A stretch of 51,588 nt of DNA from an uncultured Planctomycetales bacterium (GTDB taxonomy: Bacteria; Omnitrophota; Gorgyraeia; Gygaellales; JAHJCI01), in NCBI GenBank assembly GCA_964588765.1, contig CAZPQS010000001.1:1-51588 (forward strand). Reading direction: 5' to 3'. This document shows positions 2,351 through 49,354 of the stretch, piece after piece. Position 1 is the stretch's first letter; the number at the start of each line of letters is the position of its first letter. The translations under genes were made by a program, and so were the position numbers. The notes beneath the pieces were generated by a model. The model was not told the origin of the DNA. It was given only the letters and a program-made list of their open reading frames with translations, and did not search any database.

Positions 2351-3790
2351 TTAAATTTTAAAAATATATTTAGACTTAGAGCTTATAATATCCTTTATTA
2401 AAAGAAATGCTCCTCTTGCTAAATTCACCAACTCGCGTAGAGACTTCAGATTTTTTAATCGGCGAATAAGGTAATCAATCCTTAAATAAAATGACCGGTT
2501 TATAACTGAGACCCACCTTTTGATGTCTGCTCTGGATATATCGGCAATATTTCTTTTAACAAAAGGCCTGTTATATGGATTAAGAATAAAAAAATCTTTT
2601 AAGTCATTGCAGGATATCTTTTTTCCGCCTATGGCATTTTTAGCCAAAATTGATTTGGGATCAGGAAGTAGTTCTCCGCAAAGGATAAAATCCGGCCTTA
2701 TCTCACTTAATAAATTCTTGGTTTCCTTAACTGTATGGTCATTTTCTCCAGATGAACCTATGAGAAGATAAGCTACAGTCCTAATCTTGGCCCTTCTAGT
2801 AATTTCAAAGGCAGTCTTAATATCGTTTAAATTTATTTGTTTATGTAAATTATTTAGAATATCCTGAGACCCGGACTCTACGCCATAAGAAATTATATAG
2901 CAACCTGCCTTAGCCATCACATTCAAAAGAGCGCTTGAAACTAAATCCACTCTTGTTTTGCAAGACCAAGCAAATCTGATATCCTCCTCTAAAATTCGCT
3001 CGCATAACTCCATAACTCTATCTGGATTAAAAGTGAAGTTAGTGTCTATGAAATGTATCTCTCTTATTTTAAATTTCTCTATTGCCTCCTTTATCTCTTC
3101 TATTACACTGTGAATAGCGCGCGCTCTTACCTCTCCAGACAAACAACAGAAATCGCAGTTATATATACAACCCCTGCTGGTCTCCATTAATGTCAGCGGC
3201 GGATATAAATTAAAAGGCGGGTGCATCCTGTAGTTTTTATTTGGCAGAAGATGCCTGGCTGGAAAAGGTAATCTATCCAAATCTAAATATGAAGGGGTGG
3301 GAGTAGAAACGATTCTGCCATTATCCTTGTATGAAATGCCAAAAATTTTTTCTAAATTACATAAGCGGCCTCCTTTCCTCATTTGTGTACACAAACTTAA
3401 CATGGCTTCTTCGCCTTCGCCCCTGACCAGTATATCAAAGTCTCCTCCTAAGCCGAAAATTGTCTCTGGCGAAAAACTATTGCAATGCCCTCCCAGGACT
3501 ATTCTTGAATCTGGATTTATGTGCTTCAACAATTTTACTATCTTCATACCCTCTGTTAAGTTGAACAGGCCGCAGCTCAAGCCACATATAGGGTAAGCAT
3601 TGTTTTTTAGATATTTCGGCAAATCTTCTGTTTTAATGTTCAAAGCCTGCATATCTAATATGCTTACGTCAAAATCGTGTTTCTCCAAGACAGAAGCAAT
3701 ATAAGCCAGTCCTAGAGGAGGAAGTGGATAAACGCCGCTTAAATTAAACCTGAACCTGGTTGAAGGTGGAGAAATTAAAAGTATCTTCAT
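2351..3790 (-). CDS. B12-binding (class B) radical SAM enzyme
   Basis: 479 aa. N-terminal Rossmann-like block MKILLISPP...PPLGLAYIASVL...ILVRGEGEE. Cluster motif SRGCIYNCDFC. Confidence 0.85.
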   Translation of the reverse strand: MKILLISPPSTRFRFNLSGVYPLPPLGLAYIASVLEKHDFDVSILDMQALNIKTEDLPKYLKNNAYPICGLSCGLFNLTEGMKIVKLLKHINPDSRIVLGGHCNSFSPETIFGLGGDFDILVRGEGEEAMLSLCTQMRKGGRLCNLEKIFGISYKDNGRIVSTPTPSYLDLDRLPFPARHLLPNKNYRMHPPFNLYPPLTLMETSRGCIYNCDFCCLSGEVRARAIHSVIEEIKEAIEKFKIREIHFIDTNFTFNPDRVMELCERILEEDIRFAWSCKTRVDLVSSALLNVMAKAGCYIISYGVESGSQDILNNLHKQINLNDIKTAFEITRRAKIRTVAYLLIGSSGENDHTVKETKNLLSEIRPDFILCGELLPDPKSILAKNAIGGKKISCNDLKDFFILNPYNRPFVKRNIADISRADIKRWVSVINRSFYLRIDYLIRRLKNLKSLRELVNLARGAFLLIKDIISSKSKYIFKI

Positions 3791-5308: not shown

Positions 5309-6499
5309 TTAAAAGCCCGCGCCATACTTAAACATCCCGCCTCCCGTTAAGCTATCTAGATATTTACGATAGTTGGAAATAGCTTTAGCGTGCCATTCAG
5401 GAGTAATCCTGATAGCTCTTTCGGCTATATCAGCACAATATTTACAATCCTCGCAGGATTTTCCGATACAATTCTCGTTTAAGAAATGTTCGATAAAGCC
5501 GCCTAAGGCCTTATTATCGATATAGACCCTTGTCTCATCCAGCAGACTTCTTGCCTTGAGAAGCGTAAATATATTAATACGGAAGGGATAAAAGAAATAC
5601 TTAAATTTATGAAATATGTTCGCTCTTTGAAAGATAATATTTTTCGACGGCCGCGAGAATAAATCAAGCAGATTGCCTTCGTAATATCCCTTGGTATAAG
5701 CATCTACCACCGAAAGGATTGCCTGCGTTGTCATAGCCCTATTTACTAGTTTTATGCTATCGATACCTACGGCTTCGTAATAATGCACATCTTCGGGCCG
5801 TATCCAACCCGCACGGATAAATTCTACCGGGTCCATTAACCTTATATAATTACAGGCGATGGTACAATAATCAATTAAAAAACTGTATGAAAGATAATCG
5901 TCTTGTGAGCCATGCGAATTTAAGACAGAGTGATATATCCAAAAAGGACAGTGAGATAAGCAGTCAAGATTAGCTATAAGCTGAAGTTCGCATTTAACCG
6001 CCCGCCGTAACTGGCGCAATAATGGAAAGTTTCTATTCACGCTTATTTCAGCCAATGTAATCCGGTCCGCTCCCAATCCCTCCCAATACTTAGCTCTTCT
6101 AATAGAATCTACTCCCGCCTGAGTAGATACGCATACTTTCAATTTAGGATAACGCCTCTTTATCAATTCTAGAAGGTAGGGGATAGAAACTGTAACCCCA
6201 TCGACACCGATATCCATAAGCCAGTCTAAAAGCGCGACTATACTGCGTTGCCCCTTAATTGTCCACTCTCGATTCCCCATACAGGTGGCATTTAATAAAT
6301 AATTAAATTTTGCTCCGCTACGCCGAGCCTCGGTTATATACATTGCTGCTTTACTTTTAGAGACATGAGGTAATATATAGGATGCTCTTCCTCCGCCCAC
6401 AAAGTCACTGGCAAGCTTGCTATATAATTCTGCCACTTTGAATCTCTCCAGGCCTGGTAGTAATTCTGCCTGCCAATTATGCGGGACAGAAAACTTCAT
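5309..6499 (-). CDS. U32-family protein, long Cys-rich paralog B
   Basis: 396 aa. Collinear with 1111..2322 and carries the same Cys patterns (C-x9-C-x3-CPFW, DYC-x3-C, C-x4-C-x2-C-x2-C). AAGGAGGG Shine-Dalgarno just upstream. ATGA overlap with the upstream gene at 6496-6499. Confidence 0.6.
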   Translation of the reverse strand: MKFSVPHNWQAELLPGLERFKVAELYSKLASDFVGGGRASYILPHVSKSKAAMYITEARRSGAKFNYLLNATCMGNREWTIKGQRSIVALLDWLMDIGVDGVTVSIPYLLELIKRRYPKLKVCVSTQAGVDSIRRAKYWEGLGADRITLAEISVNRNFPLLRQLRRAVKCELQLIANLDCLSHCPFWIYHSVLNSHGSQDDYLSYSFLIDYCTIACNYIRLMDPVEFIRAGWIRPEDVHYYEAVGIDSIKLVNRAMTTQAILSVVDAYTKGYYEGNLLDLFSRPSKNIIFQRANIFHKFKYFFYPFRINIFTLLKARSLLDETRVYIDNKALGGFIEHFLNENCIGKSCEDCKYCADIAERAIRITPEWHAKAISNYRKYLDSLTGGGMFKYGAGF

Positions 6500-7923
6500 T
6501 TACCCTCCTTAAAAATTAAATCCATCCAACTCCTAAATAGGTTAAAAATCTTTCTGAAAGGCAATCTAATTATACTATCTATATGCTTAAGGATATAAAC
6601 GGGTCGCAAATAAAATCTTTTATATGCCCTATTTATCATTCTATTTAAACTATCCAGAGGCATCGTTTTTGACAAATATATGGAATCATTATTCTTTATG
6701 AGCTTACCCCAATCCGCAACTAAATATCTTCCATTGGAATCTACCAATCTCCCCTGACTTACGGCAATATCAAATAAGTCAGAGCCGGGAAAAAGGCCTA
6801 GGGGTGCCCAAATCGCATAATCAGCATCTATCTCGATAGCTATGTCGGCTGTCTGTCGAGATTCTTCCTCTGTCTCAGTAGGAAGACCCATTATAAGTGA
6901 AGCCATCGCTTCTATTCCCGCCTCCTTTGTAATCCTGAATGTCTCTCTTATCTGTTCCAGGGTAATATTCTTCTTTATCAAATGTAATAATCGTTGTGAA
7001 CCTGATTCCACTCCGTAGAATATCTGATAACAGCCAGCTTTCTTCATTTTCTTAAGGAGTCCTTTATCAATCATATCTACACGGCTTAGGCAGGACCAAG
7101 GCATATCTAACTTCATATTGACTAAACGCTCACATAAATCGATTACTTTATGGCGGTCTATAGTAAAATTATCATCATAAAATTGTATAGCGTCTACCCC
7201 ATATCTGTCTCTTAAGTAAACAATCTCCTTTATAATTCTCTCGGTGCCAAAATGCCGGGATGTCCTGCCAAAAATCTTAGGGGCAGCGCAATAGGCGCAT
7301 TTATAAGGACAGCCGCGGGAAGTAATAAGATGTGCCGTTGTGCGCCCTCTTAATTGAGCCGTGGAATGATATCGATTAAGGGGAAAAAGATGCCAGGCAG
7401 GGAATGGCAGGGTATCCAGATTCTGTATTAACTGCCGAGGGGGATTTTGTATTATCTCTCCGTCTTCTTTCCAAGTCAATCCAGTAACATCGGCAAGATA
7501 TCTCCTACCCTTTAATGCCCCCAGCAAATTCTCGAACGTCACTTCGCCTTCACCAGCAATAACAAAATCAACATTCTCCTCCTTACATATCTCAATGGGA
7601 AAAAGGCTTGCCTGTACACCGCCAAATACGATTTTAACTTCAGGGCTAAACTCCTTTATTCCCTTGGCAGCCTCAAGGCAATCATTAATATTATAACAGA
7701 GAGTCTGCATACCTATTAATTCAGGGCTGTATCTTTTTACCAATCTAAATAAAACCTCGGACGAATAATTCATCGCCGCACAATCGATAATGCAGACTTC
7801 ATTACCAGCGTTTTCAGCCACGGCTGCTATATAAGCCAGGCCTAAGGAGGGATAAAGACCGTTAACGTACTTTAGACAACCTCTCTTTCCGGAAATCGGC
7901 GGATTAATTAAGAGTATCTCCAT
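6496..7923 (-). CDS. B12-binding (class B) radical SAM enzyme
   Basis: Cluster motif SRGCPYKCAYC and a B12-type N-terminus. I placed the start at MEILLINPP (7923) by analogy with the paralog N-termini. The longest ORF starts at 7950 (484 aa); the true start is uncertain. Confidence 0.8.
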   Translation of the reverse strand: MEILLINPPISGKRGCLKYVNGLYPSLGLAYIAAVAENAGNEVCIIDCAAMNYSSEVLFRLVKRYSPELIGMQTLCYNINDCLEAAKGIKEFSPEVKIVFGGVQASLFPIEICKEENVDFVIAGEGEVTFENLLGALKGRRYLADVTGLTWKEDGEIIQNPPRQLIQNLDTLPFPAWHLFPLNRYHSTAQLRGRTTAHLITSRGCPYKCAYCAAPKIFGRTSRHFGTERIIKEIVYLRDRYGVDAIQFYDDNFTIDRHKVIDLCERLVNMKLDMPWSCLSRVDMIDKGLLKKMKKAGCYQIFYGVESGSQRLLHLIKKNITLEQIRETFRITKEAGIEAMASLIMGLPTETEEESRQTADIAIEIDADYAIWAPLGLFPGSDLFDIAVSQGRLVDSNGRYLVADWGKLIKNNDSIYLSKTMPLDSLNRMINRAYKRFYLRPVYILKHIDSIIRLPFRKIFNLFRSWMDLIFKEGK

Positions 7924-9514
7924 ATTGCAAGATTTTTTTCTGGTTATCATTTTTTTCGTATAAATATACGATTATCCCCTTAAATTCCTTGGCGCTCTTT
8001 CTTGAATATAAGCTTTCTATGTATTTACGTATTAGCACCTCTTCCGGGATATTTCTCATAGCCCCTAAATTAATCCCGCTATCAAAAATATAACCGGAAT
8101 ATACCAGCCAGACCCTGCGTTGATTACCAACTGAAATATTACTCGGGATTTTCTTGACCCCTTGCTCCCGAAACTTAAAAGGTAGCACCTGTGCCCCTTC
8201 CTCCACTGACAAGAGATAATTACCTGCGTTTAACTCTTTAGATTTATCTTTCCTCATAGTTTTAAAATAATATTCAAAAGGAAGTGTCGCACAATAATCA
8301 ACATGGAATACAACATCTCCCTGCTGAAAATTATCTACAATATACCTGCTGGCGCTTCTGTAGTCTCTCTTTGGCTGTACCCCAATACAGCTTTTGGGAT
8401 TAGGCAAAATATCCAGATAGTAATTTTTTATCCCTATCCCGTTTAATATTAGCATAGAACATAATATAGGAATCGCATATTTATTGCGCAGCCTAGATAA
8501 CCCATTAGCAACCAAAAGATAATAGAATAATGCACACGGTAGGATATATCTATCTACATACCAGACTTTAATCTTTGATATGAGAAACATGCTAATTATG
8601 GGGATTAAAAAGCACAATAATAATATCGTGTATGAATCCCGTCTTTCTTGTTTTTGCTTTTTAATTAATCCCCAGCCCAGAAGTAACAAAAATATTACTG
8701 TGGCAAAGTTGTATATTACCCCGGTAACATTGTATCCAAAGCTAAAATTCTTGAGTGTATAAAAAACATTCTTAAATGACCCCTCTCCTGCCCACCATGG
8801 CACCCAAAAATACTTCGCATCACCAAAAAGTGCTAGCTTCAACAGAAATATCACATTTATCAACCACGGAATGAGAAATAAAATAAAAAGTATATTGACA
8901 AACAACCATTTCTTAAAAAAGCGCGCATATCTTTTGTAATAAAATAAAAAGTAGAGCAATTCAGCAAATAATATAAGAATAGCCATATAGTGCAGATAAA
9001 TGCTAATTAGGGTAAATGCTAGGTAACATAACCAAAATTTTAACCTACCGTATCTTAAAGCCTTTATTAAAAAGTATACCGATAGCAAAACAGTCAATGC
9101 TACCATAGAATACGACCTTACCTCCCGGGAATAATAGATATGAAAGGGAGAAATTGTTAAAATAAAACTTGCCAATAAGCCTGTCTTCTTCCCGAATAGA
9201 AATGCTCCTACTCGATAAACAGCAAATATCGTAAGCATGGCAAATATAACCGCGGACATTCTCAGCGTGAACTCGTCTTTACCAAGGCGTTGCCAATAAT
9301 AGATAAACAGGCTGGATAGAAAAGACGGATATCTGTCTTCTATGGAATCAAACATTCCCATCTTGCCAACCATTGTTTTCGTATAATCTGTGCTCAATAA
9401 TGAAGCTGCCTCGTCAAACCACAGGCTGTATCTGTCCAGCTGATACGTCCTTAAATAAAGACCGAGAAAGAACATAAGTACAAAAAGGATAATGTAAAGT
9501 CTATTTTTACGCAT
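7904..9514 (-). CDS. GT-C fold integral-membrane glycosyltransferase (ArnT/PMT_2-like, GT39/GT83 type)
   Basis: 536 aa. Many hydrophobic segments in the first ~370 aa. The first-loop motif YSLWFDEAAS is typical of ArnT/PMT-type enzymes. The C-terminal domain is soluble. Confidence 0.7.
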   Translation of the reverse strand: MRKNRLYIILFVLMFFLGLYLRTYQLDRYSLWFDEAASLLSTDYTKTMVGKMGMFDSIEDRYPSFLSSLFIYYWQRLGKDEFTLRMSAVIFAMLTIFAVYRVGAFLFGKKTGLLASFILTISPFHIYYSREVRSYSMVALTVLLSVYFLIKALRYGRLKFWLCYLAFTLISIYLHYMAILILFAELLYFLFYYKRYARFFKKWLFVNILFILFLIPWLINVIFLLKLALFGDAKYFWVPWWAGEGSFKNVFYTLKNFSFGYNVTGVIYNFATVIFLLLLGWGLIKKQKQERRDSYTILLLCFLIPIISMFLISKIKVWYVDRYILPCALFYYLLVANGLSRLRNKYAIPILCSMLILNGIGIKNYYLDILPNPKSCIGVQPKRDYRSASRYIVDNFQQGDVVFHVDYCATLPFEYYFKTMRKDKSKELNAGNYLLSVEEGAQVLPFKFREQGVKKIPSNISVGNQRRVWLVYSGYIFDSGINLGAMRNIPEEVLIRKYIESLYSRKSAKEFKGIIVYLYEKNDNQKKILQYGDTLN

Positions 9515-9532
9515 ATCGTTTCAGATTTTAGC

Positions 9533-10324
9533 TTACATCGGCAAGTCCGGCTGATAAATAATCCTGTCAATCCCTTCTTGCTCAAGATAATCCGGCATCT
9601 TTCGATTCGCCAGAAATACGGTGTTGCCTTTCATATAAAGAGGCAAAGGCATAGTATGATGCTGTAATACAATGGGGTTACTAAGCCTACATTTTTTTCC
9701 ACATTTAGGCAAAATACCTCCTTCAGGCTGAAGAGGGTTATTATTAAATATACACTCCCTTGAAGTGGTAACATAATTGAAAGGAAAATAAAGTGAGATA
9801 TGTAGCCCCTCGGTTTTTATATATTCATTCGTACTAATGCCTTGAGGCAAATTATCTATCTCCATCCGCTCTACAGAGTTATTTTTTAAGAAGCGGGCAA
9901 GATATGAGCTAATGGCAGCGGCCTTCAAGCGCTCTAATGCCCCCTCTGTTAACTTTCCGGTCAAATTCAGTATCCGCGGGTCGCGTTTCTGTTTAGTCAA
10001 CAATCTTCCCACAATAGGCATTAAATTATACTTTCTAACAATATCCAACATTCCCCAGTCGTTTATAACTATTTCGCTATTCGGGATTCTGTTAGATATA
10101 ATGCCTAATAAATCTTGCAAGTAATTCAAATCTGAATCGGTTGCGAAACCGGTTACAAAAGTAAAACCTAAATTCTTAGATAAAGTGAAGTCTAAAATCT
10201 TTTCTAATTCCTCTCTAGTGGGAATTAATTTCTGGCAAAATTCATTGCCAAAATATATTCTTGAATATCTCTTAGAACAATTTTTAAGTTCTGAAGCTTT
10301 ACTGATAAAAATCGCTTCTTCCAT
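9533..10324 (-). CDS. Short U32-family protein, UbiV-like
   Basis: 263 aa. YFGNEFC block, VINDWGML block, then SREC-x16-C-x3-C. Together these give four Cys arranged as in the UbiV 4Fe-4S ligands. Confidence 0.6.
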   Translation of the reverse strand: MEEAIFISKASELKNCSKRYSRIYFGNEFCQKLIPTREELEKILDFTLSKNLGFTFVTGFATDSDLNYLQDLLGIISNRIPNSEIVINDWGMLDIVRKYNLMPIVGRLLTKQKRDPRILNLTGKLTEGALERLKAAAISSYLARFLKNNSVERMEIDNLPQGISTNEYIKTEGLHISLYFPFNYVTTSRECIFNNNPLQPEGGILPKCGKKCRLSNPIVLQHHTMPLPLYMKGNTVFLANRKMPDYLEQEGIDRIIYQPDLPM

Positions 10325-10354
10325 CCCTAAGATATCCTAATTTATTCAGTCAAA

Positions 10355-11395
10355 TTATGTTGGATAGTAACATAATCCGGATTCGCAATTAGAAGAGTAT
10401 ATATTGGAATATAGGGCTTTTATCTCCTCTTTAAAATCCTGCTTTCCTGAATTATCTTTAAGCAAATCTAGGGAGCTGTGAATAAATTTTATATCTCTGA
10501 TTTTCTTGGCGGTAAAATCTTCTCTGCCAACCACCTTGACGAATCCAATTTTAAATTTATTTAAATCGTATAATGCGCAGGCACCGCATCTATGCAAAAA
10601 GTGCTCAGCATCAAAAGATCCCAAAAGTCCTGTTCTTTTTTCTGCTTTCAATTTTAATCCGCCATCGGAAATTTCATAATTCAAGCAGCAACCCAGTTCT
10701 TTTCTAAATATAGCTTTCTGCAACCAAGACGTACTATCAGGATGTGAATTGAGAAATTTTCTTACAAATTTCACATTCCAAACTCTAGAGAGAAAAGGAT
10801 ATTTTGTTGCCATTAAGCCGTGAGCAAATGTGCAAAATCCATCTATGTTATGGCATTTTTGATTAAATACGAAGACCTCCAGTTCTATCTCAGGTGACTT
10901 ACGGGTAATGAGACCGATTTCCTCGATACTTAACTGCCTATCCAGTATAACTCTTGATACACCCAAATTTTTATAAAAAGCTACTGTTTGAGAATTAAAT
11001 GTGGTTGCTCCGGTCCCCATATGAATTTTTATATTATGCCCTCTATCCTTAATCATCAATAATAGATTAATATCTACCACTATTAATCCGTCTACGCCGG
11101 CATCTATCGCTCGCTCAGAGTCATCCAGGGCTAAATTGTATTGCCCTTCTGAATAGAATTCATTTATAGTGAAAAAAACAGGGATATTATGAGAATGTGC
11201 CAATTTAACTACCCGATTTAATTCTTTAAAATCATCTAAATTAGCAGACCTGCCGGGATGCCTATTGGGTGATGCAATATCGGTATATTTCTGCTGCCAC
11301 TCTTTTGTGTAAACACCGCAATATAATTCATCTGCCCCTGCCTGAATAACATCTTCTACCTCATATATCTTACTTATAGGAGCAACAAGCTTCAT
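10355..11395 (-). CDS. U32-family protein, UbiU-like
   Basis: 346 aa. Canonical U32 blocks GADELYCG, AGVDGLIVVD, GVSRVILDRQLS and EVFVFNQKCHNIDGFC (C-x6-C). Confidence 0.75.
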   Translation of the reverse strand: MKLVAPISKIYEVEDVIQAGADELYCGVYTKEWQQKYTDIASPNRHPGRSANLDDFKELNRVVKLAHSHNIPVFFTINEFYSEGQYNLALDDSERAIDAGVDGLIVVDINLLLMIKDRGHNIKIHMGTGATTFNSQTVAFYKNLGVSRVILDRQLSIEEIGLITRKSPEIELEVFVFNQKCHNIDGFCTFAHGLMATKYPFLSRVWNVKFVRKFLNSHPDSTSWLQKAIFRKELGCCLNYEISDGGLKLKAEKRTGLLGSFDAEHFLHRCGACALYDLNKFKIGFVKVVGREDFTAKKIRDIKFIHSSLDLLKDNSGKQDFKEEIKALYSNIYSSNCESGLCYYPT

Positions 11396-11416
11396 TTTAA
11401 TTTCTTTTAGCTAGCC

Positions 11417-12976
11417 TTAATTATCATACCAGCTTGGTTTTCTCAAGCACATAAAACCGGTAATACCCTCTGATTTGTTTCTTCCCATAAACATATCTTT
11501 AATTTCTAAAAATATCATTTTTAAGGTATTCCTGAAAAACCACCAATAAAGACCCCGCTTATGTTTATAAGGAGAGAATAATCCTCTGATTAACCAATGC
11601 GGTCGGTATAATACATATCTCTTATTAAGCTCTGTGTTCAATTTGGCAAATTCTTCCGTAGATAATCCCGCGCGAGAACGCATTACGGGAGTAGACCAAT
11701 CGTATTTCTTAAAGTCTTTTTCTGTCAAAAGATTGTTCTCTTTCGCATCCTGATAAAGCTGTGTCCCTGGGACAGGCGCAACCGGATGAAAAGCAGGATA
11801 ATCTATATCTATTTCTATTGCATATTTTACTAAATTCAGCATTGATTCTCTGGTATCAAAAGGTAAACACGTAACAAACGTCCCTTGCCTGAATACGCTG
11901 GGGTACTTCTTCTTAAAGATTAAGAAGACTTCCTTTACTAAATCCCTGGTATAAACAGATTTTCTAATCTCCCTAAGGTCTTCGGTGCAAGCCCTCTCTA
12001 TGCCAATTAGAGGATGCACTAATCCTGCTTTAACCATTTTTTCTAATATACCTAAACGCTCGTCTCTTAGAGCAAAATCTGCCCTTAAGAATGCCCACCA
12101 GTATAAATCCTTATAATTCCTCTTCAAAAGTTCTTCGCAGAACTCATCTGTCCATTTAGAATCAACATTAAATGTAGGATCTGCCCAGATTATATATCGC
12201 CTATTATATTTCTTATAAACAATATCTACCTCCTCTAACATTCTTGCTACACTTTTACTTCTATATTTAGGCATTACCTCTAATTCTCCCCTCTCTATAT
12301 CTGTCTTTAGATGTTTCCCCCAGAAGGTCCAAAGAGAACAAAAATTACATCTGTCTATGCATCCCCGCGAGTGCTCAAGGGTGGCGCTTTGCGGCCAAAG
12401 ATAACCAAAAGGAGAATACCTGCCCATAGGCATAAGGTCATAAGCAGGCAAGGGCAATGAATCTAAATCTTTAACTAAGGGGCGTAAGGGAGTCTTAATT
12501 ATCTGGCCGTTATCTCTATAAGCAATCCCTCTTACATTCAATAAGTCTGCACCCTTATCAAGGGCCTGAATTAGTTCCACTATTGTTTCCTCTCCCTCAA
12601 ATCTTACAATAATATCTATAGGATATTTATTTAAACTATGCTCTACCATCCAGGAAAAGAAATGTCCGCCGGCAACCGTAATTACTCCTGGATTTATCTT
12701 CTTAGCTAATTTAAATAATCTCACTGCCTCATGATGGTAAAGCGCCTCTTCGCCTGCACCAACGATATCAGGCTTTTCTTCTCGCAGTATTTTCTCCAGA
12801 GTCTTCCATCCTATCTTAAATGGTGGACAGTCAATAATTTTTACTTTTATATCAGGCAAGCTTGTTCTTATAGCTGATGCTATGCAGGGTAAACCCAAGG
12901 GTAGAAGAAAATTGTCAGACTCGTTTATAAAGGGCCAGAGGTACCGAGGTGGTCTTACTAATATTATTTTTTTCAT
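11417..12976 (-). CDS. B12-binding (class B) radical SAM enzyme
   Basis: 519 aa. MKKIILVRPP...LPLGLPCIASAI...IIVRFEGEE. Cluster motif SRGCIDRCNFC. Confidence 0.85.
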   Translation of the reverse strand: MKKIILVRPPRYLWPFINESDNFLLPLGLPCIASAIRTSLPDIKVKIIDCPPFKIGWKTLEKILREEKPDIVGAGEEALYHHEAVRLFKLAKKINPGVITVAGGHFFSWMVEHSLNKYPIDIIVRFEGEETIVELIQALDKGADLLNVRGIAYRDNGQIIKTPLRPLVKDLDSLPLPAYDLMPMGRYSPFGYLWPQSATLEHSRGCIDRCNFCSLWTFWGKHLKTDIERGELEVMPKYRSKSVARMLEEVDIVYKKYNRRYIIWADPTFNVDSKWTDEFCEELLKRNYKDLYWWAFLRADFALRDERLGILEKMVKAGLVHPLIGIERACTEDLREIRKSVYTRDLVKEVFLIFKKKYPSVFRQGTFVTCLPFDTRESMLNLVKYAIEIDIDYPAFHPVAPVPGTQLYQDAKENNLLTEKDFKKYDWSTPVMRSRAGLSTEEFAKLNTELNKRYVLYRPHWLIRGLFSPYKHKRGLYWWFFRNTLKMIFLEIKDMFMGRNKSEGITGFMCLRKPSWYDN

Positions 12977-13025
12977 TTCTATTTAAATAAAATCCTGATT
13001 TTCGCTGTCTATAACTTTATTTGTA

Positions 13026-14408
13026 TTATTGAATATACCCTAAGCTTCTTAGATTTTGTCTTGCATTATCATCCAAAAGCGCCTTTTGAGGATTTATATC
13101 TACATAAATAGGATAATTTTTTAACCAAATCTTTAATGCTTTCTTTAATTCGCCTTTCTCGGTTGAGAACTCTGGAGAATTATCATCTATAAAGTTATTG
13201 TATTCGTCCGGGATACGATAGAATTCCTCTTTTCCGTCCCGATGCAAAATATATTTAATATTTTTGTTTATCTCCCGGATGCTCCATTTTCTATGGTCAT
13301 AAGCATATATGTATTTTCTCTCTGCAGCTTCGTTCTTTACAACTCCTTTCAAATCTATACCGTCAAAGTTATTTTTATTAAAGAAATACCAAACGGGATT
13401 TACCTTATTTAAAATTGTAGGGACAACGTCTGTAGAAGACACGACTGCTGGAATTCTTCTCCCGCCTTTAAAATATCTATTATCTTTAATAATGAGGGGT
13501 ACGTGTAAAACTTCATCATACATATTTTCATGGTGAAAATATGTATTGTGTTCACCTAAGCTCTCTCCGTGGTCCGCAGTTAATATAATGAGGGTATTGT
13601 CTTTTATATTTTTTAGCAATTTGCCTATCTGAAAATCTGTATATAATATCTCGGCATCGTAACGAGCAATGTAGTAATTAAGGTTATATTTGTCTTTATG
13701 AAATGCTATTCTGGGTATATATCCCTTACTTACACTGGGGTTTGTATCATTAAAAGGATTTAGTTGTAATATCTTATCATTCTCCTTATAAAATCCATCG
13801 TTCTCAAAAATTCTGAAGTATTCTTCAGGGGCAGAATACGGAGTATGCGGATCAATGTAATGTATCCAGATAAAAAAAGGTTTATTGCCAGAATAATTAT
13901 TTAAGAAATTAATGACTTCGTTTGTTATAATTTCTGTATTATCCATATAATTTATGAAAATATCAAAACCCTGTTCAAATCCTGTCCCAATTCTAAGATG
14001 CCCGTTGTCTAAAAAAGCTCTAGTATAATAATTAAACCTTTTAAGATATTCTGCTAAAGTAGTAAATTTTCTATCAAATATATTAATATAATCGCCAAAT
14101 AAAATTTTAAAATCAGAAATTGCTAAATACCTTCCAGAAATAAGAGCGGGCAAAGCAAAAACAGTATTAGAAGATGTATTGAAACAATTCAAGAAACAAA
14201 CTCCCTGATTAGCTATTCTATCAATATTAGGAGTGGTTTTCCTTTTATATCCATAACAACCAAGATGATCAGGCCTTAAAGCATCAATGGTGATTAAAAC
14301 AATATTCGGACGGGCGAATCGATGTGCTCCGAGCAAAACAAGAATACCTCCTGTTGAGAAAAAAATTAAAAGAGCTACGGTTATCTTTTGCCTTTCATTT
14401 ATCCTCAT
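13026..14408 (-). CDS. Membrane-anchored sulfatase-family (alkaline phosphatase superfamily) protein without a C/S-x-P-x-R motif
   Basis: LITIDALRPDHLGCYGY metal-site block and ILTADHGESLGEH block. I placed the start at MRINERQK (14408) because the paralog at 32789..34174 starts MMRINRKQK. The longest ORF (to 14486) would overlap the upstream gene by 92 nt. Confidence 0.75.
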   Translation of the reverse strand: MRINERQKITVALLIFFSTGGILVLLGAHRFARPNIVLITIDALRPDHLGCYGYKRKTTPNIDRIANQGVCFLNCFNTSSNTVFALPALISGRYLAISDFKILFGDYINIFDRKFTTLAEYLKRFNYYTRAFLDNGHLRIGTGFEQGFDIFINYMDNTEIITNEVINFLNNYSGNKPFFIWIHYIDPHTPYSAPEEYFRIFENDGFYKENDKILQLNPFNDTNPSVSKGYIPRIAFHKDKYNLNYYIARYDAEILYTDFQIGKLLKNIKDNTLIILTADHGESLGEHNTYFHHENMYDEVLHVPLIIKDNRYFKGGRRIPAVVSSTDVVPTILNKVNPVWYFFNKNNFDGIDLKGVVKNEAAERKYIYAYDHRKWSIREINKNIKYILHRDGKEEFYRIPDEYNNFIDDNSPEFSTEKGELKKALKIWLKNYPIYVDINPQKALLDDNARQNLRSLGYIQ

Positions 14409-16446
14409 CTCTGAATAAACTCTTGCCCGATATATCCTTGGGTTTATTAATATCGAATAAGAATAATAGAGTCGGGGCAATATCAATAATTGAGGGATTC
14501 TTTAGATTTATCTTTTTATTGATAAATATTACCCCTGGAACCAAAGCGGGATCTATTAAATGGTCACCGCTCCATTTTCTTTTGTTATCTTCAATTAATA
14601 AGTTAGGAACTCCGCCCAAAGCAGTCTGCCAGGATGCACGGTAGCCCGCATTAAATCCCACAAATATATCTGGAGCATTATCTGCATAAGGGCCTTCAAA
14701 TGCATCTTCTTGGGCGTAAACATTATTTACGATTTTTTCGCCATTCTCAGGATCATGAAATCCCTTTAGTCCTTTTATAATTGCCTGTTTTAGAACTTGA
14801 GCTTCAGATTTATTTACGATTCCATAATATTCTCGACCAATCCTATTTAAATAAATTCCTCCGAAGCCCAACGCATACGCCTTTGTTTTTGACCAATCTA
14901 TGTCTTCAAAAAATTCTTTACTTTCATTTTTGCCTTCTTTCAGAAAGAGATACCCATTTTCTAAAAGCCAGCGGTTAAGATGAACGGCTCTTCGAAAAGA
15001 ACTGAATCCGTGGTCGGATAATATAATTAATATTGTATCCTTATCTATACTCTTTAAGATATCACCGATAATGCGGTCGATCTTCTCATAATATCTAAAA
15101 ATCGTATCTTGATATAAAGGGTCCTTTTCGTAAAGAGGGTGCCTGGAATCCAAATAGCGCCAGAATGTATGCTGAACCATATCTAAAGTATCGAAATAAA
15201 AAAAGAATATGCCGCCTTTAAATTTGCCCAATTCTTCTTTTAGAATCTTTTCCTTATCATCTAAAATTGCATCTGCTTGTTCTAAAAAGACTTTCTCATC
15301 TATTTTGCCCTCGGTTAACGCCCAAGCATCATGGGGCATACCCAAGGTGTAGTAAAAACCTATCTTCTTAGCCAATTTTTTAGAGTAATTATGGGGATAG
15401 GAAACAGGGAAAGGCGGCCTTTGGGGATCAAAATTTATCGCACTTAGATATAGATTAAATTCCGGACTGATAGATTTTAGATAAAATTTTGCTATACCAT
15501 AGACTTTTCTGAATGAGTTAATCTTAAAGGATAACGTTTGCCAATCGCTCCAACTGTTTTCCTTAAGAGTGAGGGACTTTCCTTGAAATTCAAGGGATAT
15601 ATTTTCTCCATTCGGAGCAAAAGCAATCCTTAAAGGAATTATGCTCTCGGTAGTCGACTTACCGGAAGCTAATTTTGGTCCATAGATTTCCGTATCAATT
15701 ATATTATTTTTAGACTCTACATGAATAATCCTGCCTTGACTGTCCTTATCTTCGTCGGTTAATTCTTTCATAGTATAAAAGGAAAATCTGCCCATTGTTC
15801 CATATAGATCTGGTACGCCCATACCCGAAAGCATCTTGCCTAAAATTTTATCGGGTGGAAAAGTATTGGGACAAAAATAGATAAAGCAAGGAATTCTATT
15901 TCTGGAAAAAATATTCCAGAAAGTCTCTCCTTTTCTGCGTATCTGGATTTTGACTTTGCCTTTAACGGTTGAAATCTCATTTAGACTCAGATAAGGAAGA
16001 TACGTTGCGGGGTCAAGCATAATGAAATCAAATATACCGTGACTGCCTGGATTTAGTCCGGTTGAAAAACTTGTCCAAGCTACGGCGGATTCAGCTGGAA
16101 CTGTAGTTGTCAGATGTGAATAGTTGCCTATCGTTTTAAGATAAGAAAAGTTAGGGAGTTTACCTTCGTGAAAGAGTCGCTCGGTAATGCGGGGGTCCAT
16201 GGCATCAATCCCTAATACTATTACCTTTTTATTAATCGCGGACTTATGCATCATTATTCCTCCGATAATTAAAATTAATAATACTAATAAAATAAAGATA
16301 ACCCAAATAAATTTTCTTAGAAATCTAAAGAAAAATCTAAAAAACAAAAATAAACTTCCGAGTAATCCTAAGATTAACCCCCATAGAAAAGATGTATTCT
16401 GGACAAATATGAACCCCTGGCCCGGGTCGACATAATAATTAACCAT
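14395..16446 (-). CDS. Membrane-anchored alkaline-phosphatase-superfamily enzyme (type I phosphodiesterase / nucleotide pyrophosphatase-like)
   Basis: 683 aa. Hydrophobic N-terminal helices. Blocks VLGIDAMDP, TTTVPAESAVAWTSFSTG, ILSDHGF and WSGDH. AGGAGG Shine-Dalgarno 6 nt upstream of the ATG. Confidence 0.7.
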   Translation of the reverse strand: MVNYYVDPGQGFIFVQNTSFLWGLILGLLGSLFLFFRFFFRFLRKFIWVIFILLVLLILIIGGIMMHKSAINKKVIVLGIDAMDPRITERLFHEGKLPNFSYLKTIGNYSHLTTTVPAESAVAWTSFSTGLNPGSHGIFDFIMLDPATYLPYLSLNEISTVKGKVKIQIRRKGETFWNIFSRNRIPCFIYFCPNTFPPDKILGKMLSGMGVPDLYGTMGRFSFYTMKELTDEDKDSQGRIIHVESKNNIIDTEIYGPKLASGKSTTESIIPLRIAFAPNGENISLEFQGKSLTLKENSWSDWQTLSFKINSFRKVYGIAKFYLKSISPEFNLYLSAINFDPQRPPFPVSYPHNYSKKLAKKIGFYYTLGMPHDAWALTEGKIDEKVFLEQADAILDDKEKILKEELGKFKGGIFFFYFDTLDMVQHTFWRYLDSRHPLYEKDPLYQDTIFRYYEKIDRIIGDILKSIDKDTILIILSDHGFSSFRRAVHLNRWLLENGYLFLKEGKNESKEFFEDIDWSKTKAYALGFGGIYLNRIGREYYGIVNKSEAQVLKQAIIKGLKGFHDPENGEKIVNNVYAQEDAFEGPYADNAPDIFVGFNAGYRASWQTALGGVPNLLIEDNKRKWSGDHLIDPALVPGVIFINKKINLKNPSIIDIAPTLLFLFDINKPKDISGKSLFRDEDK

Positions 16447-16452
16447 ATTCTG

Positions 16453-16458
16453 CCTCCT
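16453..16458 (-). promoter_or_regulatory. Shine-Dalgarno (AGGAGG) for the 14395..16446 CDS
   Basis: The plus strand reads cctcct, with a 6-nt spacer to the ATG at 16446-16444. Confidence 0.6.
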
Positions 16459-16465
16459 GTCGATT

Positions 16466-17674
16466 TCACAAGATAATTCCTACCGCCCGAATTTCGATAT
16501 TATCTTTGAGAATAAATCTTCCTAAGCTATTAGACTGCTTATAACCTTCCACTACCACCGGACTGTCAGTAACCAGGACTGCTTCGGCAAGATCAAATTG
16601 GCCCAATGAATCGCTTACGGATTTTGCTTCCAGGGTAGCTATATCCCAAATACCGGTTATCTGCTTAATCCGGACAGAAACATCCTGGGTAGTACATTTA
16701 AATCTCATGCTTTCTTTTATATCAAAAGGTTGGACGCAAAAAATTTTAGCCAAGACTTCTCGTACAACATGAGGCAAAGCTGGCTTACAGATAATCTGAC
16801 CGCGCTCCAGGCCGCTCATCTCATCCAGTACCAACCCAATGCTCTCCGGTGCCTTTGCCGCTGCTCTATTTCTATCAAAAACTCTTATTGTCTTTATGTT
16901 ACACTCTTTATTTATGGGTAGAATCTTAACTTTCTCGCCATTCCTTATGTTGCCAGAAATAATTTTTCCAATTGCTACCTTTTCCCCATTTATTCTATAG
17001 ATATCCTGTACCGAAAAACGGAAGTCGCCGTTCATCGTTTCTTTAAAACAAAGATTTAATATCTCGGCCAGCGGCAATCCCCTATACCAAGGCATCTTTT
17101 TAGATTCCTTACAGAGATTCTCTCCTTGTTTTGCTGAAACAGGTATAAAATATTTTGGTTCAATCCCTACTTTTTTAATGAGCCCTACTGCATCTTCTTT
17201 TACCCTTTCAAAAGTATTTTCATCAAAGTTAACTGAATCCATCTTATTCAATGCCAGAATAATCTGCTCTATCCCTAAGAATTTTAAGATAAAGGCGTGC
17301 CTTCTTGTCTGTTCTTCTATAGATTTCTGGACATCTACAACAAGTATAGCGATATCAGCGTAGGAACTGCCGCTGAGCATATTTTTGAGTAATTCCCGAT
17401 GCCCCGGGACATCAATAAAGATAAGCCCAATCCCTCTTTTAGTTTTACAGAAAACCTGAGCTGTATCTATGGTTAACTGGTTCCTCCTTTCTTCTTCAAA
17501 GCTGTCTAATAAATAAGCAAACTCAAAATCCCTATCCAGTCTTTGAGAGATATCTGCAATTTCTTCAATCGTTCCCTGAGAAAGTGAACCTGTCTCATAT
17601 AAAAATCTTCCAATTAAAGTAGACTTCCCTGAATCCACCTCTCCGGTTACTATTACTTTCAAGTAATCCCGCAT
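16466..17674 (-). CDS. cysN: Sulfate adenylyltransferase subunit 1 (GTPase), stand-alone form without an APS-kinase domain
   Basis: 402 aa. G1 GEVDSGKST, G3 DVPGH, G4 NKMD, with EF-Tu-like beta-barrel domains following. Located 2 nt downstream of cysD. Confidence 0.85.
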   Translation of the reverse strand: MRDYLKVIVTGEVDSGKSTLIGRFLYETGSLSQGTIEEIADISQRLDRDFEFAYLLDSFEEERRNQLTIDTAQVFCKTKRGIGLIFIDVPGHRELLKNMLSGSSYADIAILVVDVQKSIEEQTRRHAFILKFLGIEQIILALNKMDSVNFDENTFERVKEDAVGLIKKVGIEPKYFIPVSAKQGENLCKESKKMPWYRGLPLAEILNLCFKETMNGDFRFSVQDIYRINGEKVAIGKIISGNIRNGEKVKILPINKECNIKTIRVFDRNRAAAKAPESIGLVLDEMSGLERGQIICKPALPHVVREVLAKIFCVQPFDIKESMRFKCTTQDVSVRIKQITGIWDIATLEAKSVSDSLGQFDLAEAVLVTDSPVVVEGYKQSNSLGRFILKDNIEIRAVGIIL

Positions 17675-17676
17675 TT

Positions 17677-18492
17677 TTACATATAGCCCAATGACCTTAA
17701 TTTCTGCATCATATATTCTTTTTCTTTATCCTGGGCACGACCCGACCTTTCAGAAATTCGCGTATCCAGAATCTCTTTTATAACCTTACCGATGGTATTT
17801 GCTGATGATTCAATGGGTTGACAGCAGCACTCGCATCCAATACTGCGATATCTTCTATTTTTTTTAGCAAAATATAGATTTATTACCGGTAATCTTTCCC
17901 TTTTTATGTATCTCCATATATCAATCTCTTGCCAATGCAGCAAAGGGTGAATTCTCAAATGGGTACCTGCTTCTATTCCTGTTTTATAATATTCTGCCCA
18001 CAACTCCAGAGGCTGATTTTGATAATCCCATCTAAATTCTTTATCCCGCCAGGAAAAATACCTTTCCTTTGCCCTTATTGCATGCTCATCCCTTCTTATA
18101 GCAACGAGAAGGGCCTTGAAATTATATTTCTCGATTGCTTGTTTCAAGGCTTCGGTTTTTAAGGCATTACAACAATTGAATCTTCCCTTTTCAGGCGACA
18201 TACCTTCTTTTAAGGCTTTATCATTTTGGGCTATAATTAACTTCAGATTCCACATCTTCGCATATCTATCCCGGAATTCATATATCTGTCTAAATTTAAA
18301 GGTTGTATCAATATGAATAACAGGGATAGGAATCTTTCCCAAAAATGCCTTTCTCATTAGATGAACTAAAGTAGTGGAATCCTTACCCATACTCCATAAG
18401 GCAGCCAGATTATCTCTATACTCCCAATAGGCTTCTCGAATAATATAGATGCTTTTAGATTCTAATTCATCCAAATATGAAGTTTTTCTCAT
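17677..18492 (-). CDS. cysD: Sulfate adenylyltransferase subunit 2
   Basis: 271 aa. PP-loop SMGKDSTTLVHL. AIRRDEHAIRAKERYFS block. C-terminal RAQDKE...GYM. Confidence 0.9.
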   Translation of the reverse strand: MRKTSYLDELESKSIYIIREAYWEYRDNLAALWSMGKDSTTLVHLMRKAFLGKIPIPVIHIDTTFKFRQIYEFRDRYAKMWNLKLIIAQNDKALKEGMSPEKGRFNCCNALKTEALKQAIEKYNFKALLVAIRRDEHAIRAKERYFSWRDKEFRWDYQNQPLELWAEYYKTGIEAGTHLRIHPLLHWQEIDIWRYIKRERLPVINLYFAKKNRRYRSIGCECCCQPIESSANTIGKVIKEILDTRISERSGRAQDKEKEYMMQKLRSLGYM

Positions 18493-18515
18493 CTTTATGC
18501 CTAAAACATAAGTCT

Positions 18516-18547
18516 ATAAAAAATAACGCTGCCCATAGCTAAGGGCA
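18516..18547 (-). terminator. Weak hairpin plus U-rich tract (possible attenuator or partial terminator between the GT2 gene and cysD)
   Basis: The minus strand reads TGCCC-ttagctat-GGGCA followed by gcgttatttttta. The stem is only 5 bp. Confidence 0.2.
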
Positions 18548-18572
18548 CTAATACAACTGTTAATCTCACCGC

Positions 18573-19427: not shown

Positions 19428-19434
19428 TGCTATA

Positions 19435-26588: not shown

Positions 26589-27077
26589 CTATTTATTAAA
26601 AACCTTGGCATTGGCCCAGACTACATATGAAGAACTTATTCCGTTATCTTTCACAATTAAGGTCAGTTGCTTTACATCCTTAACTGTCAGGTCAAGTTCC
26701 TCGGAATCACCGGCTCTCATCATTGCACTTTCGTAAATCTTTTTTCCATCTGCCAGCACTGTAAATTTGAGCTTACCCTTATATTCCGGGAAATCGTCGT
26801 GGTGCCCGATTACGCATTTAAAGTAATCGTATTCCCCGTCCAAATCATAGGTAAGCTCGGAATTAGAACTGACGCATAAACCTTTCTTAAATTCGCTCCC
26901 CTGAACGGTAATTAGAACTCCCTCCTCGTCCATATCCTTTAGATAATCGCCTGTGCTATAGAGAGGCTCTAAATCGCTAAGATAGGTCTGGAATGTAGCT
27001 TCACCGGTAGTCCTCTGTCCGCAAGAAATCACCAGAAACATGGACATGCAAAGCATTAACATTATAATCTTTCTCAT
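26589..27077 (-). CDS. Lipoprotein with NPCBM-like carbohydrate-binding domain (copy 1)
   Basis: 162 aa. Lipobox LVISC. YLSDLEP...KKGLCVSSNSELTYDL...YFKCVIGHHDD...KFTVLADGK...VVWANAKV matches the NPCBM/NEW2 pattern. Confidence 0.6.
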   Translation of the reverse strand: MRKIIMLMLCMSMFLVISCGQRTTGEATFQTYLSDLEPLYSTGDYLKDMDEEGVLITVQGSEFKKGLCVSSNSELTYDLDGEYDYFKCVIGHHDDFPEYKGKLKFTVLADGKKIYESAMMRAGDSEELDLTVKDVKQLTLIVKDNGISSSYVVWANAKVFNK

Positions 27078-49347: not shown

Positions 49348-49354
49348 ATGTTTT

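Follow-up and report, generated by a model that had tools for sequence, protein, structure and literature searches.

To our knowledge, the U32 'peptidases' are emerging as the sole hydroxylases that work without O2 and use an organic oxygen donor; the only three substrates known to us are ubiquinone precursors, tRNA U34 and rRNA C2501, and we know of no structure of an active U32 enzyme. UbiU and UbiV of E. coli (YhbU/YhbV) are encoded by two adjacent genes, for proteins of ~330 and ~290 aa, the larger one with a CX6C motif and the smaller one with a CXnCXmCX3C arrangement. The UbiV ligands C39, C180, C193 and C197 were defined experimentally and follow the pattern CXnCX12CX3C, in which the first Cys is far upstream (PMC6747719). 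TrhP1/TrhP2 of B. subtilis (YrrO/YrrN), responsible for tRNA ho5U34, are likewise a tandem pair of co-operonic U32 proteins with low identity, both of which are needed (PMC6599085); they form a heterodimer, and heterodimers are the working form of the known U32 oxidases (PMC11574389). In RlhA (E. coli YdcP), responsible for 23S rRNA ho5C2501, a second Cys-rich part of the same polypeptide may stand in for the partner subunit (PMC11574389). A Glu...CX6C signature is essential in TrhP and RlhA for U32-dependent hydroxylation, and both TrhP and YrrO carry a Peptidase_U32_C domain (PMC6599085). The basis for prephenate-dependent, O2-independent hydroxylation by UbiUV, TrhP and RlhA is genetics and 18O labelling only (PMC10990095, PMC6599085), and in vitro hydroxylation has never been reconstituted for any U32 protein (PMC10990095, PMC11574389).

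The DNA analysed here, a stretch of 51,588 nucleotides from an uncultured bacterium of the Omnitrophota that we call the window, contains a comparable pair of genes on its minus strand. The gene for the large subunit (10355..11395, ATG start) encodes a Pfam U32 protein of 346 aa, recognized from the ORF list and by PF01136. The gene for the small subunit (9533..10324, ATG start) encodes a TIM-barrel-like protein of 263 aa with a UbiV-type Cys pattern, as indicated by the ORF list, the AF2 model and Foldseek. The 30-nt spacer that separates them (10325..10354, minus strand) contains an AGGA Shine-Dalgarno-like motif about 14 nt before the ATG. Counts of promoter and terminator signals in 7500..14800, spacer included, are no higher than expected from shuffling. 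The two ORFs are real genes, and their strand, their 30-nt spacing and the Cys motifs quoted in the initial annotation were all found again.

The large ORF scored 94.8 bits with PF01136 (Peptidase_U32; gathering threshold 22.4, E 6.5e-27), its residues 94-343 covering profile positions 9-228 of 233, and has 439 homologues at E<=1e-3. Its KCHNIDGFC motif corresponds to C181-x6-C188. These two residues align with C169/C176 of UbiU, and, together with E173, eight residues ahead of the first Cys, they are the equivalents of E162, C170 and C177 of TrhP (E. coli YegQ); E173 also corresponds to RlhA E161, the U32 domain of RlhA having the same E...CX6C signature. In the family alignment, Cys 181, 188, 236, 270, 273, 337 and 342 are invariant (60/60) and C26 is kept in 56/60 members, whereas the Glu equivalent to TrhP E162 is kept in only 36/60. 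Mean pairwise divergence in the sets used for Cys conservation, of both the large and the small family, is 0.56-0.59. The term canonical U32, which had been applied to this protein, is right as far as the Pfam family is concerned and fits the Cys motif only in part: of the canonical CX6CX15CX3/4C, the CX6C is present, but the third, 'GxC' position is absent. C236 represents the fourth canonical position and aligns with the 'AC' of TrhP/RlhA and with the C196/C197 pair of UbiV. Nothing in the large ORF corresponds to the UbiU ligands C193 and C232; unlike UbiU, the ORF possesses the extra residues C26 and C236 and a second four-Cys group, C270-x2-C273...C337-x4-C342. Either C26 or this CX2C...CX4C group could replace the missing third Cys, and the group is comparable to the second Cys-rich part of RlhA. 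RlhA differs in being a single 653-aa ribosome-binding polypeptide with the canonical CX6CX15CX3/4C motif.

The large ORF is 26% identical to E. coli UbiU over the N-terminal 213 residues (BLASTP, 2e-20). It gave 88.9 bits with the UbiU equivalog model NF047963, as compared to a cut-off of 440 and over residues 1-191 only, and 84 bits with the TrhP model, as compared to a cut-off of 534. With the UbiV equivalog model NF047965 (>=275 bits) it gave 16.6 bits, and the small ORF gave no match. Judged by sequence, neither protein is orthologous to UbiU or UbiV, and the large ORF is likewise not orthologous to TrhP or RlhA. No Peptidase_U32_C domain of the TrhP/RlhA type was found by Pfam in the pair; the lack of the C-terminal U32_C motif distinguishes the large subunit from TrhP and is a feature in common with UbiU-UbiV, where neither protein has such a domain.

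In the small ORF, GNEFC ends at C30 and SREC at C191, and the complete spacing is C30-X160-C191-X16-C208-X3-C212. C30 and C191 are conserved in 60/60 members of the family alignment, C208 and C212 in 59/60. The four Cys reported initially are in fact five, of which four are conserved; the fifth, C16, is kept in only 5/60 members and is not a ligand. MAFFT places the conserved four in the columns of C39, C180, C193 and C197 of UbiV, and further columns common to the two proteins are Y24, G26, E84, D89, G91, G106, P181 and Y184. The pattern is that of a putative Fe-S site of the UbiV type, with a middle spacing of 16 instead of 12. The expected correspondence with UbiU/UbiV ligands is complete for the small ORF (four out of four) and partial for the large one, where C181/C188 align and the third ligand of UbiU and of the canonical motif is missing.

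The small-subunit family comprises 2189 representatives of 50%-identity clusters at E<=1e-3. Small and large genes are adjacent and on the same strand, in either order, in at least 59 of 80 species-level GTDB loci from bacteria and archaea; ubiU and ubiV also co-occur and are mostly adjacent (PMC6747719). The mirror-tree correlation between small and large subunits is r = 0.88, a value reached by 0/2000 permutations. With adjacency and the mirror-tree correlation as proxies, the two proteins would form a heterodimer. Among the best 150 of the 2189 representatives, none was found to combine the small domain with a large U32 domain. Some small subunits have no large subunit nearby, and three proteins (P0402, P0428 and P0474) consist of the small domain fused to a SAM methyltransferase. 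The hosts of the pair number in the hundreds and are anaerobic bacteria and archaea, with reduced CPR and DPANN genomes among them, whereas those of UbiU-UbiV are Pseudomonadota. The initial designation as a UbiU/UbiV-like pair is supported by the U32-like fold and the UbiV-type Cys columns of the small ORF and by the adjacency of the genes, but does not extend to orthology.

Whether the small subunit is a relative of U32 proteins was addressed at the level of both sequence and structure. No Pfam or NCBIfam model matches the small ORF (PF01136: no match at E<=0.1), and among 120 family members only one touches the PF01136 profile (E = 0.12); YrrN, in contrast, is still a Pfam U32 protein. With hhalign, the small family gave probabilities of 0.6% and 3% against the single sequences of E. 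coli UbiV and UbiU, which is no usable signal, and of 5.9% against the alignment of the large-subunit family. Nor does the small family align to the extra domain of RlhA. The small-family HMM gave -0.9 to 0.8 bits with UbiU, UbiV, TrhP and RlhA, within the range of 1000 shuffles each; the score of the A2 HMM with UbiV, -0.9 bits, was reached by 59/1000 shuffles. This HMM test is weak and cannot decide, because a true U32 HMM also misses UbiV (-1.6 bits). All homologues retrieved with E. coli UbiV are at least 85% identical to it, except one fused 73% match, and are therefore too shallow for a UbiV profile. Sequence-level homology between the small ORF and U32 proteins cannot be demonstrated by the sequence methods applied.

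The AF2 model of the small subunit (pLDDT 93.1, pTM 0.91) has its best PDB match, by Foldseek, in 5D88 (E 6e-6, TM 0.54/0.57), that is, the (beta/alpha)8-like barrel of the U32 domain of Mk0906 from Methanopyrus kandleri; other TIM barrels gave TM values of 0.3-0.45. The match is moderate in TM, with an rmsd of 6.2 A, and 5D88 is the sole U32 structure solved and hence the single reference for the fold comparison. It is calibrated by the Pfam-positive large subunit, whose model (pLDDT 84.7) has the identical top match with comparable quality (E 4e-8, TMt 0.54). Mk0906 is the best PDB match to both subunits, but with a sequence identity of only 10-16% and TM of 0.54-0.57; sequence searches of the PDB with the large and small proteins found nothing relevant. 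The earlier assignment of a U32 fold to the short ORF is borne out by Foldseek and cannot be backed by sequence homology.

These results might also be explained if the small protein were an unrelated Fe-S enzyme with a TIM barrel, acting before or after the U32 protein, and its resemblance to UbiV were convergent. TIM barrels are common, the structural match is of moderate quality, all sequence comparisons with U32 proteins and UbiV are at noise level, and small subunits also occur with no large subunit, either by themselves or in fusions with methyltransferases. On the other hand, 5D88 is the single best PDB match to both proteins, the four Cys match the unusual arrangement of UbiV in order, in spacing and in their position relative to the strands, other UbiV columns are also common, and a genuine U32 profile does not detect UbiV itself. 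We consider such a convergence quite improbable. By its behaviour, the small ORF is supported as a cryptic U32/UbiV-like subunit, and it looks like a very divergent partner of the UbiV type with a U32-like fold. Taken together with the large ORF, it makes the pair a new and widespread two-subunit U32 variant, predicted from sequences and models to bind Fe-S clusters.

In the window, the pair belongs to a tight co-directional operon on the minus strand. Directly upstream of the large gene, with a 21-nt gap, there is a B12-binding radical SAM (B12-rSAM) gene (11417..12976; Pfam B12-binding and Radical_SAM), and directly downstream of the small gene, with an 18-nt gap, a gene for an ArnT-like GT-C glycosyltransferase (7904..9514; Pfam PMT_2, 2.4e-14). 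The window contains two more U32-like ORFs beyond the pair, both on the minus strand and both overlooked in the initial annotation. One (5309..6499) encodes a 396-aa protein of a second kind, with a C-terminal Cx4Cx2Cx2C and a Pfam U32 match (2e-13) limited to residues 87-150, and the other (1111..2322) its 403-aa paralogue (Pfam U32, 6.3e-11; 51.5% identical by BLASTP). Each lies directly after a B12-rSAM gene and is part of the context, outside the pair. In all, a U32-type gene comes after a B12-rSAM gene three times (11417..12976 and 10355..11395; 6496..7950 and 5309..6499; 2351..3790 and 1111..2322). No tRNA genes or Rfam matches were found in the window, and its ORFs of at least 150 aa contain no Ubi, Men or SCP2 domains, UbiA, UbiE and UbiG included. 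The initial statement that a quinone, rRNA or tRNA context is missing holds for the window, which in this respect differs from the UbiUVT system in lacking UbiT/SCP2 and quinone genes among these ORFs. The context of TrhP1/TrhP2 is translational, whereas that of the window pair is biosynthetic.

Among the relatives, 22/80 loci have a B12-rSAM gene no further than 6 kb from the small subunit, and only the large subunit is a more frequent neighbour; of the Omnitrophota loci, 13/15 have one. In Omnitrophota, Planctomycetia, CPR and DPANN (Nanoarchaeota included), the pair sits, as in the window, inside arrays of B12-rSAM, GT-C and radical SAM/SPASM genes. The association recurs in four phyla. PMT_2 homologues adjoin the pair or are near it in loci L007, L012, L015, L036, L044, L061, L075 and L082, and homologues of the 5309..6499 protein are beside it in L007, L044 and L075; L007 is the closest named syntenic relative of the window locus. 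One relative, P0439, fuses a B12-rSAM, a GT4, the small domain and a methyltransferase. We found no description of this association in literature searches that combined U32 with radical SAM, B12 or Omnitrophota. In a tree, the copies embedded among radical SAM genes are long-branched and mixed across phyla.

The repeated order of B12-rSAM and U32-type genes in the window, and the frequency of B12-rSAM as a neighbour, would also suit an accessory role, in which the U32 proteins move electrons or handle a cofactor for the B12-rSAM enzyme and do not modify a substrate. However, 58/80 pair loci have no B12-rSAM within 6 kb, and the Glu...CX6C on which U32-dependent hydroxylation depends is retained in the large subunit. 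We are, moreover, aware of no B12-rSAM enzyme that requires a partner of this kind. In our judgement there is very little chance that the pair has such a role.

The loci without B12-rSAM have other neighbours, namely GlcD-like/CCG/ETF genes or LipA/LplA/DnaJ. In Thermodesulfobacteriota the pair is flanked by lipA, lplA/B and dnaJ, and in Chloroflexota and Bathyarchaeia by unrelated redox genes. Copies without the radical SAM context cluster by taxonomy, and this looks like vertical inheritance. The window copy is about as close to those of Bathyarchaeia (43% identity) as to most of those of Omnitrophota (41-44%). With a family spread over very different bacteria and archaea, down to the reduced CPR and DPANN genomes, these observations are what would be expected of a housekeeping U32 oxidase that modifies a universal molecule (tRNA, rRNA or a cofactor) and is merely located in the cluster. 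Against this stand the closely packed operon that the pair forms, in one direction, with B12-rSAM and GT-C genes, the recurrence of the radical SAM arrays in four phyla, the fusion in P0439, the absence of any RNA gene found in the window, and the absence of Peptidase_U32_C, unlike TrhP and YrrO (PMC6599085). A housekeeping role appears unlikely to us.

A genuine peptidase of the collagenase (PrtC) type finds its sole support in the family name and in the annotation of homologues as 'putative protease' or 'collagenase-like PrtC family protease'. Neither ORF has a signal peptide, the invariant Cys sets are typical of Fe-S sites, the protein is paired with a second Cys-rich subunit, and those relatives that have been characterised are oxidases of the Fe-S type (PMC6747719, PMC11574389). 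Proteolytic activity is hardly credible for this pair.

We lean, with some reserve, towards the reading that the pair is a two-subunit cytoplasmic Fe-S enzyme, similar to UbiU-UbiV and TrhP1-TrhP2, that carries out an O2-independent oxidative tailoring of an intermediate of the cluster. The large subunit would be a U32 protein of the catalytic type, which keeps the Glu...CX6C and has, in addition, another metal site of four Cys. In the small subunit, a separate [4Fe-4S] cluster would be bound by four Cys, placed after beta-strand 2, after the barrel strand that normally bears the CX6C and in the CX3C. The two genes would be co-transcribed with those for the B12-rSAM enzyme and the GT-C glycosyltransferase, and the target may be a glycan- or lipid-linked intermediate of this radical-SAM-rich cluster. 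For the reaction, oxidative tailoring without O2 is the most likely type, and hydroxylation has the best precedent. Fe-S binding, heterodimer formation, hydroxylase chemistry, oxygen donor and substrate are what we infer. Points that count against this reading as a whole are the noise-level sequence comparisons of the small family, the moderate match to 5D88, the missing third Cys, the Glu kept in only 36/60 members, the 58/80 loci with no B12-rSAM close by, and the small subunits that have no large one near them. That the pair is, more specifically, a hydroxylase working anaerobically on the product of the cluster is a plausible proposal. The B12-rSAM arrays of the Omnitrophota loci and the P0439 fusion speak for it, and the unrelated contexts in Chloroflexota, Bathyarchaeia and Thermodesulfobacteriota against it, as does the fact that in vitro hydroxylation is on record for no U32 enzyme (PMC10990095, PMC11574389). 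As far as we know, the shikimate pathway is generally missing from CPR and DPANN hosts, and this speaks against prephenate as the oxygen donor in every case.

A broader and more doubtful proposal, which we make tentatively, is that the small protein stands for a hidden U32 branch of about 2200 clusters (50% identity) for which there is no curated model, and that with the large subunit it makes up a two-component Fe-S U32 oxidase of a third class. Such an enzyme might, in Omnitrophota, Planctomycetota, CPR and DPANN, have been recruited, with cobalamin radical-SAM methylases and GT-C enzymes, for the O2-free hydroxylation (and, via the fused methyltransferases, methoxylation) of unactivated positions on a glycan- or polyprenyl-linked surface molecule.

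None of the current family models detects the small class of subunit, so that too few U32 systems are counted and their 'hypothetical' partners are overlooked. The annotation of such proteins in metagenomes as collagenase, and hence as evidence of protein degradation, is corrected by these results. As a compact pair from strict anaerobes and archaea, whose two proteins are small and can be modelled with high confidence, they are new material for biochemistry and structural work. The link with B12-radical-SAM and GT-C genes points to a new surface-molecule chemistry in Omnitrophota, CPR and DPANN, and, if a glycan- or polyprenyl-linked surface molecule is indeed hydroxylated, the chemistry of U32 proteins would reach past aromatic rings and pyrimidines.

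The window is one densely packed run of minus-strand genes, and the two ORFs proposed in the initial annotation, of 346 and 263 aa, were found on that strand at 10355..11395 (large ORF) and 9533..10324 (small ORF), separated by a 30-nt spacer in which an AGGA precedes the ATG by about 14 nt. The suggested absence of a quinone, rRNA or tRNA context was borne out: the window contained no tRNA and no Rfam match, and no quinone-pathway or SCP2 domain was detected in any of its ORFs of at least 150 aa.

The large ORF scored 94.8 bits against Pfam U32 (threshold 22.4) and fell far under the cut-offs of the NCBIfam equivalogs UbiU (88.9 bits, cut-off 440) and TrhP (84.2 bits, cut-off 534); judged by these profiles, it is a member of Pfam U32 that falls in none of the named equivalogs. 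BLASTP aligned its N-terminal 213 residues with E. coli UbiU at 26% identity (E 2e-20). The KCHNIDGFC motif reported previously corresponds to C181-x6-C188, and in a multiple alignment with UbiU, UbiV, TrhP and RlhA these residues matched UbiU C169 and C176. The expected agreement with the UbiU ligands was only partial, since the canonical third Cys ('GxC') is missing from the large ORF; the fourth position is occupied by C236, and nothing in the E. coli proteins corresponds to the pairs C270-x2-C273 and C337-x4-C342. In 60 sequences with a mean pairwise divergence of 0.59, C181, C188, C236, C270, C273, C337 and C342 were invariant, C26 was retained in 56, and C237, which lies beside C236, in only 10. 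The equivalent of the essential Glu of TrhP (E162) and RlhA (E161) (PMC6599085) is E173, which was retained in only 36 of 60 relatives.

The small ORF matched no Pfam or NCBIfam model, and it is named 'hypothetical protein' in the source databases; the protein is outside every curated family. The PF01136 profile was reached by one of 120 members of its family, at E = 0.12. Searches retrieved 303 matches in a 90%-clustered database, 2189 cluster representatives at 50% identity (E<=1e-3) and at least 491 loci in species-representative genomes, the hosts being both bacterial (Omnitrophota, Planctomycetia, Dehalococcoidia, Thermodesulfobacteriota, Actinomycetota, Kiritimatiellia and Paceibacterota) and archaeal (Bathyarchaeia, Nano-, Undin-, Hadar- and Helarchaeota). 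Profile comparisons of the small family with UbiV, UbiU and the large-subunit family gave noise-level scores, a result that says little because the HMM of the genuine U32 large-subunit family, used as a control, scored UbiV at only -1.6 bits. The small ORF was classed as U32-like from its fold, its ligand pattern and its genomic pairing, and not from its sequence.

The AlphaFold model of the small ORF (120 sequences; pLDDT 93.1, pTM 0.91) consists of alternating strands and helices. The earlier reading depended on a U32 fold for this short protein, and the predicted structure agrees with it: the top PDB match was Mk0906 (5D88), the sole solved U32 structure (E 6e-6, TM 0.54/0.57), with generic TIM barrels ranked behind it (TM 0.3-0.45). 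The model of the Pfam-positive large subunit (pLDDT 84.7) likewise had 5D88 as its top match, at TMt 0.54, and therefore, as far as the predicted structures go, the small ORF is as close to the U32 reference as a bona fide U32 protein. The Cys described for the small ORF, GNEFC(30) and SREC(191)-x16-C208-x3-C212, are all present, and there is also a fifth, C16, which is not conserved: C30 and C191 were found in 60 of 60 sequences and C208 and C212 in 59, as compared to 5 for the C16 control. In UbiV, the first ligand peculiarly lies far upstream, outside the U32 domain, and is followed by C-X12-C-X3-C (Pelosi et al., PMC6747719); the four conserved Cys of the small subunit show this same arrangement. 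As had been anticipated, all four shared MAFFT columns with C39, C180, C193 and C197 of E. coli UbiV, positions that we checked to be Cys, and Y24, G26, E84, D89, G91, G106, G162, P181, Y184 and G233 also fell in UbiV columns. The sole dip in model confidence, at residues 190-210, coincides with the loop joining C191 to C208, as would be expected if this loop binds a metal that the model leaves out.

The U32 pair is a real, conserved feature. In at least 59 of 80 small-subunit loci taken from species-representative genomes, the small gene directly adjoins, on its own strand, a gene homologous to the large ORF (E 1e-50 to 1e-87); a Helarchaeota genome shows this adjacency as well. The large gene comes first in most lineages, and the small gene comes first in Thermodesulfobacteriota. 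Pairwise distances of the two proteins were strongly correlated (r = 0.88), a value reached by 0 of 2000 permutations. The known U32 oxidases act either as heterodimers whose two U32 proteins share little identity (UbiU-UbiV, TrhP1-TrhP2) or with an added Cys-rich domain (RlhA) (PMC11574389). A minority of small subunits forms a separate clade with no large subunit nearby. These lone paralogues (L042, L053, L055, L066, L067, L069, L070, L071, L080, L081 and L086) are mostly from Thermodesulfobacteriota, their genomes hold a paired copy too, and several adjoin GT2, LPG_synthase_TM (flippase-like), NAD-dependent epimerase and cupin genes. One Undinarchaeota genome has three small-subunit loci (L017, L024 and L058), and at L024 a single small-subunit gene (around 10001..10795) has four large-subunit U32 paralogues within 6 kb.

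Within the window, the pair adjoins a B12-binding radical SAM gene on one side (21-nt gap) and a PMT_2/ArnT-like GT-C gene on the other (18-nt gap); the remainder of the window has about fifteen further radical SAM domains, GT2 and GT4 glycosyltransferases and an asparagine synthase. Two fused minus-strand proteins are giant, one of 1315 aa (28839..32786), in which B12-binding and SPASM domains accompany three radical SAM domains, and one of 1441 aa (37724..42049), which combines radical SAM and SPASM domains, three of each. U32-like proteins of a second kind, at 1111..2322 (403 aa) and 5309..6499 (396 aa), both on the minus strand, each lie directly downstream of a B12-radical SAM gene. They are paralogues (51.5% identical), with Pfam U32 covering only about 65 N-terminal residues and the Cys pattern C-x3-C ... 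C-x3-C plus a C-terminal Cx4Cx2Cx2C; their homologues stand beside the U32 pair at L007, L044, L075 and L002. On the minus strand, the segments 13026..20685 and 32789..34174 contain CysD- and CysN-like sulfate-activation genes together with two sulfatase-like genes and two that are phosphodiesterase-like (alkaline-phosphatase superfamily), and several small radical SAM/SPASM genes at 48226..51585 could encode anaerobic sulfatase-maturing enzymes; this gene content hints at a product that is sulfated or phospho-modified. The ORFs listed at 13026..14486 and 14395..16446 overlap by 92 nt, and the former has a TTG start that was probably placed too far upstream. Two NPCBM-domain ORFs in tandem, at 26589..27077 and 27101..27586 (minus strand), begin with lipoprotein-like N-termini and show 100% identity across 159 aa, differing in their last residues only; they reflect either a tandem duplication of very recent date or an artefact of the assembly.

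The closest named relative, an Omnitrophota MAG (L007), was syntenic with the window across the whole stretch. B12-radical SAM genes lay within 6 kb of the small subunit, often together with GT-C genes, in 22 of the 80 loci (13 of 15 in Omnitrophota, 3 of 4 in Planctomycetia, some in Nano- and Undinarchaeota, one in Paceibacterota). No paper connecting U32 proteins with B12-radical-SAM clusters was found in literature searches. At one Planctomycetia and one Omnitrophota locus (L036, 12414..16520; L082, 10498..14573), the pair adjoins a tandem run of four genes, each of about 330-350 aa and without Pfam or NCBIfam match. Among the best 150 of the 2189 small-subunit representatives, four were fusions, all retaining the four Cys: methyltransferase plus small domain (P0402), small domain plus methyltransferase (P0428, P0474), and a 1220-aa B12-radical SAM, GT4, small domain and methyltransferase protein (P0439). 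The methyltransferase domains, on either side of the small domain, are class I SAM of the TPMT/TehB-like type. These fusions physically tie the small domain to the kinds of tailoring enzyme present in the window. The main rival is a housekeeping role for the pair, in favour of which the family occurs elsewhere in unrelated contexts: beside GlcD-like FAD proteins, CCG/Fer4 proteins and ETF in Chloroflexota, Bathyarchaeia, Hadarchaeota and Helarchaeota, a Tes/TrsS-like radical SAM in Undinarchaeota, and lipoyl synthase, lipoate ligase and DnaJ in Thermodesulfobacteriota. In a neighbour-joining tree of small subunits (no bootstrap), the copies embedded among radical SAM genes were long-branched with phyla intermixed, and the remaining copies clustered by taxonomy. 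Three features favour the product of the radical-SAM/glycosyltransferase cluster as the probable target of the window copy: the operon structure, the P0439 fusion and a cassette that recurs across phyla.

The pair is best read as a two-subunit Fe-S U32 enzyme with the architecture of UbiU-UbiV, in which the large subunit would be the catalytic-type partner and the small subunit a UbiV-like partner bearing a predicted Fe-S cluster. It differs from UbiU-UbiV in the ligand positions of its large subunit, in an additional four-Cys site, in the absence of UbiT and quinone genes from the window and in host range. By analogy with the three genetically characterised U32 systems, its putative chemistry would most likely be O2-independent hydroxylation. 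In ubiquinone and mo5U biosynthesis, hydroxylation is followed by methylation; by this analogy the methyltransferase fusions would fit such a sequence, among other possible readings. In vitro reconstitution has been achieved for no U32 enzyme yet (PMC10990095). Altogether, structure and genomic setting make a good case for a hidden U32 partner family, whose function is inferential.
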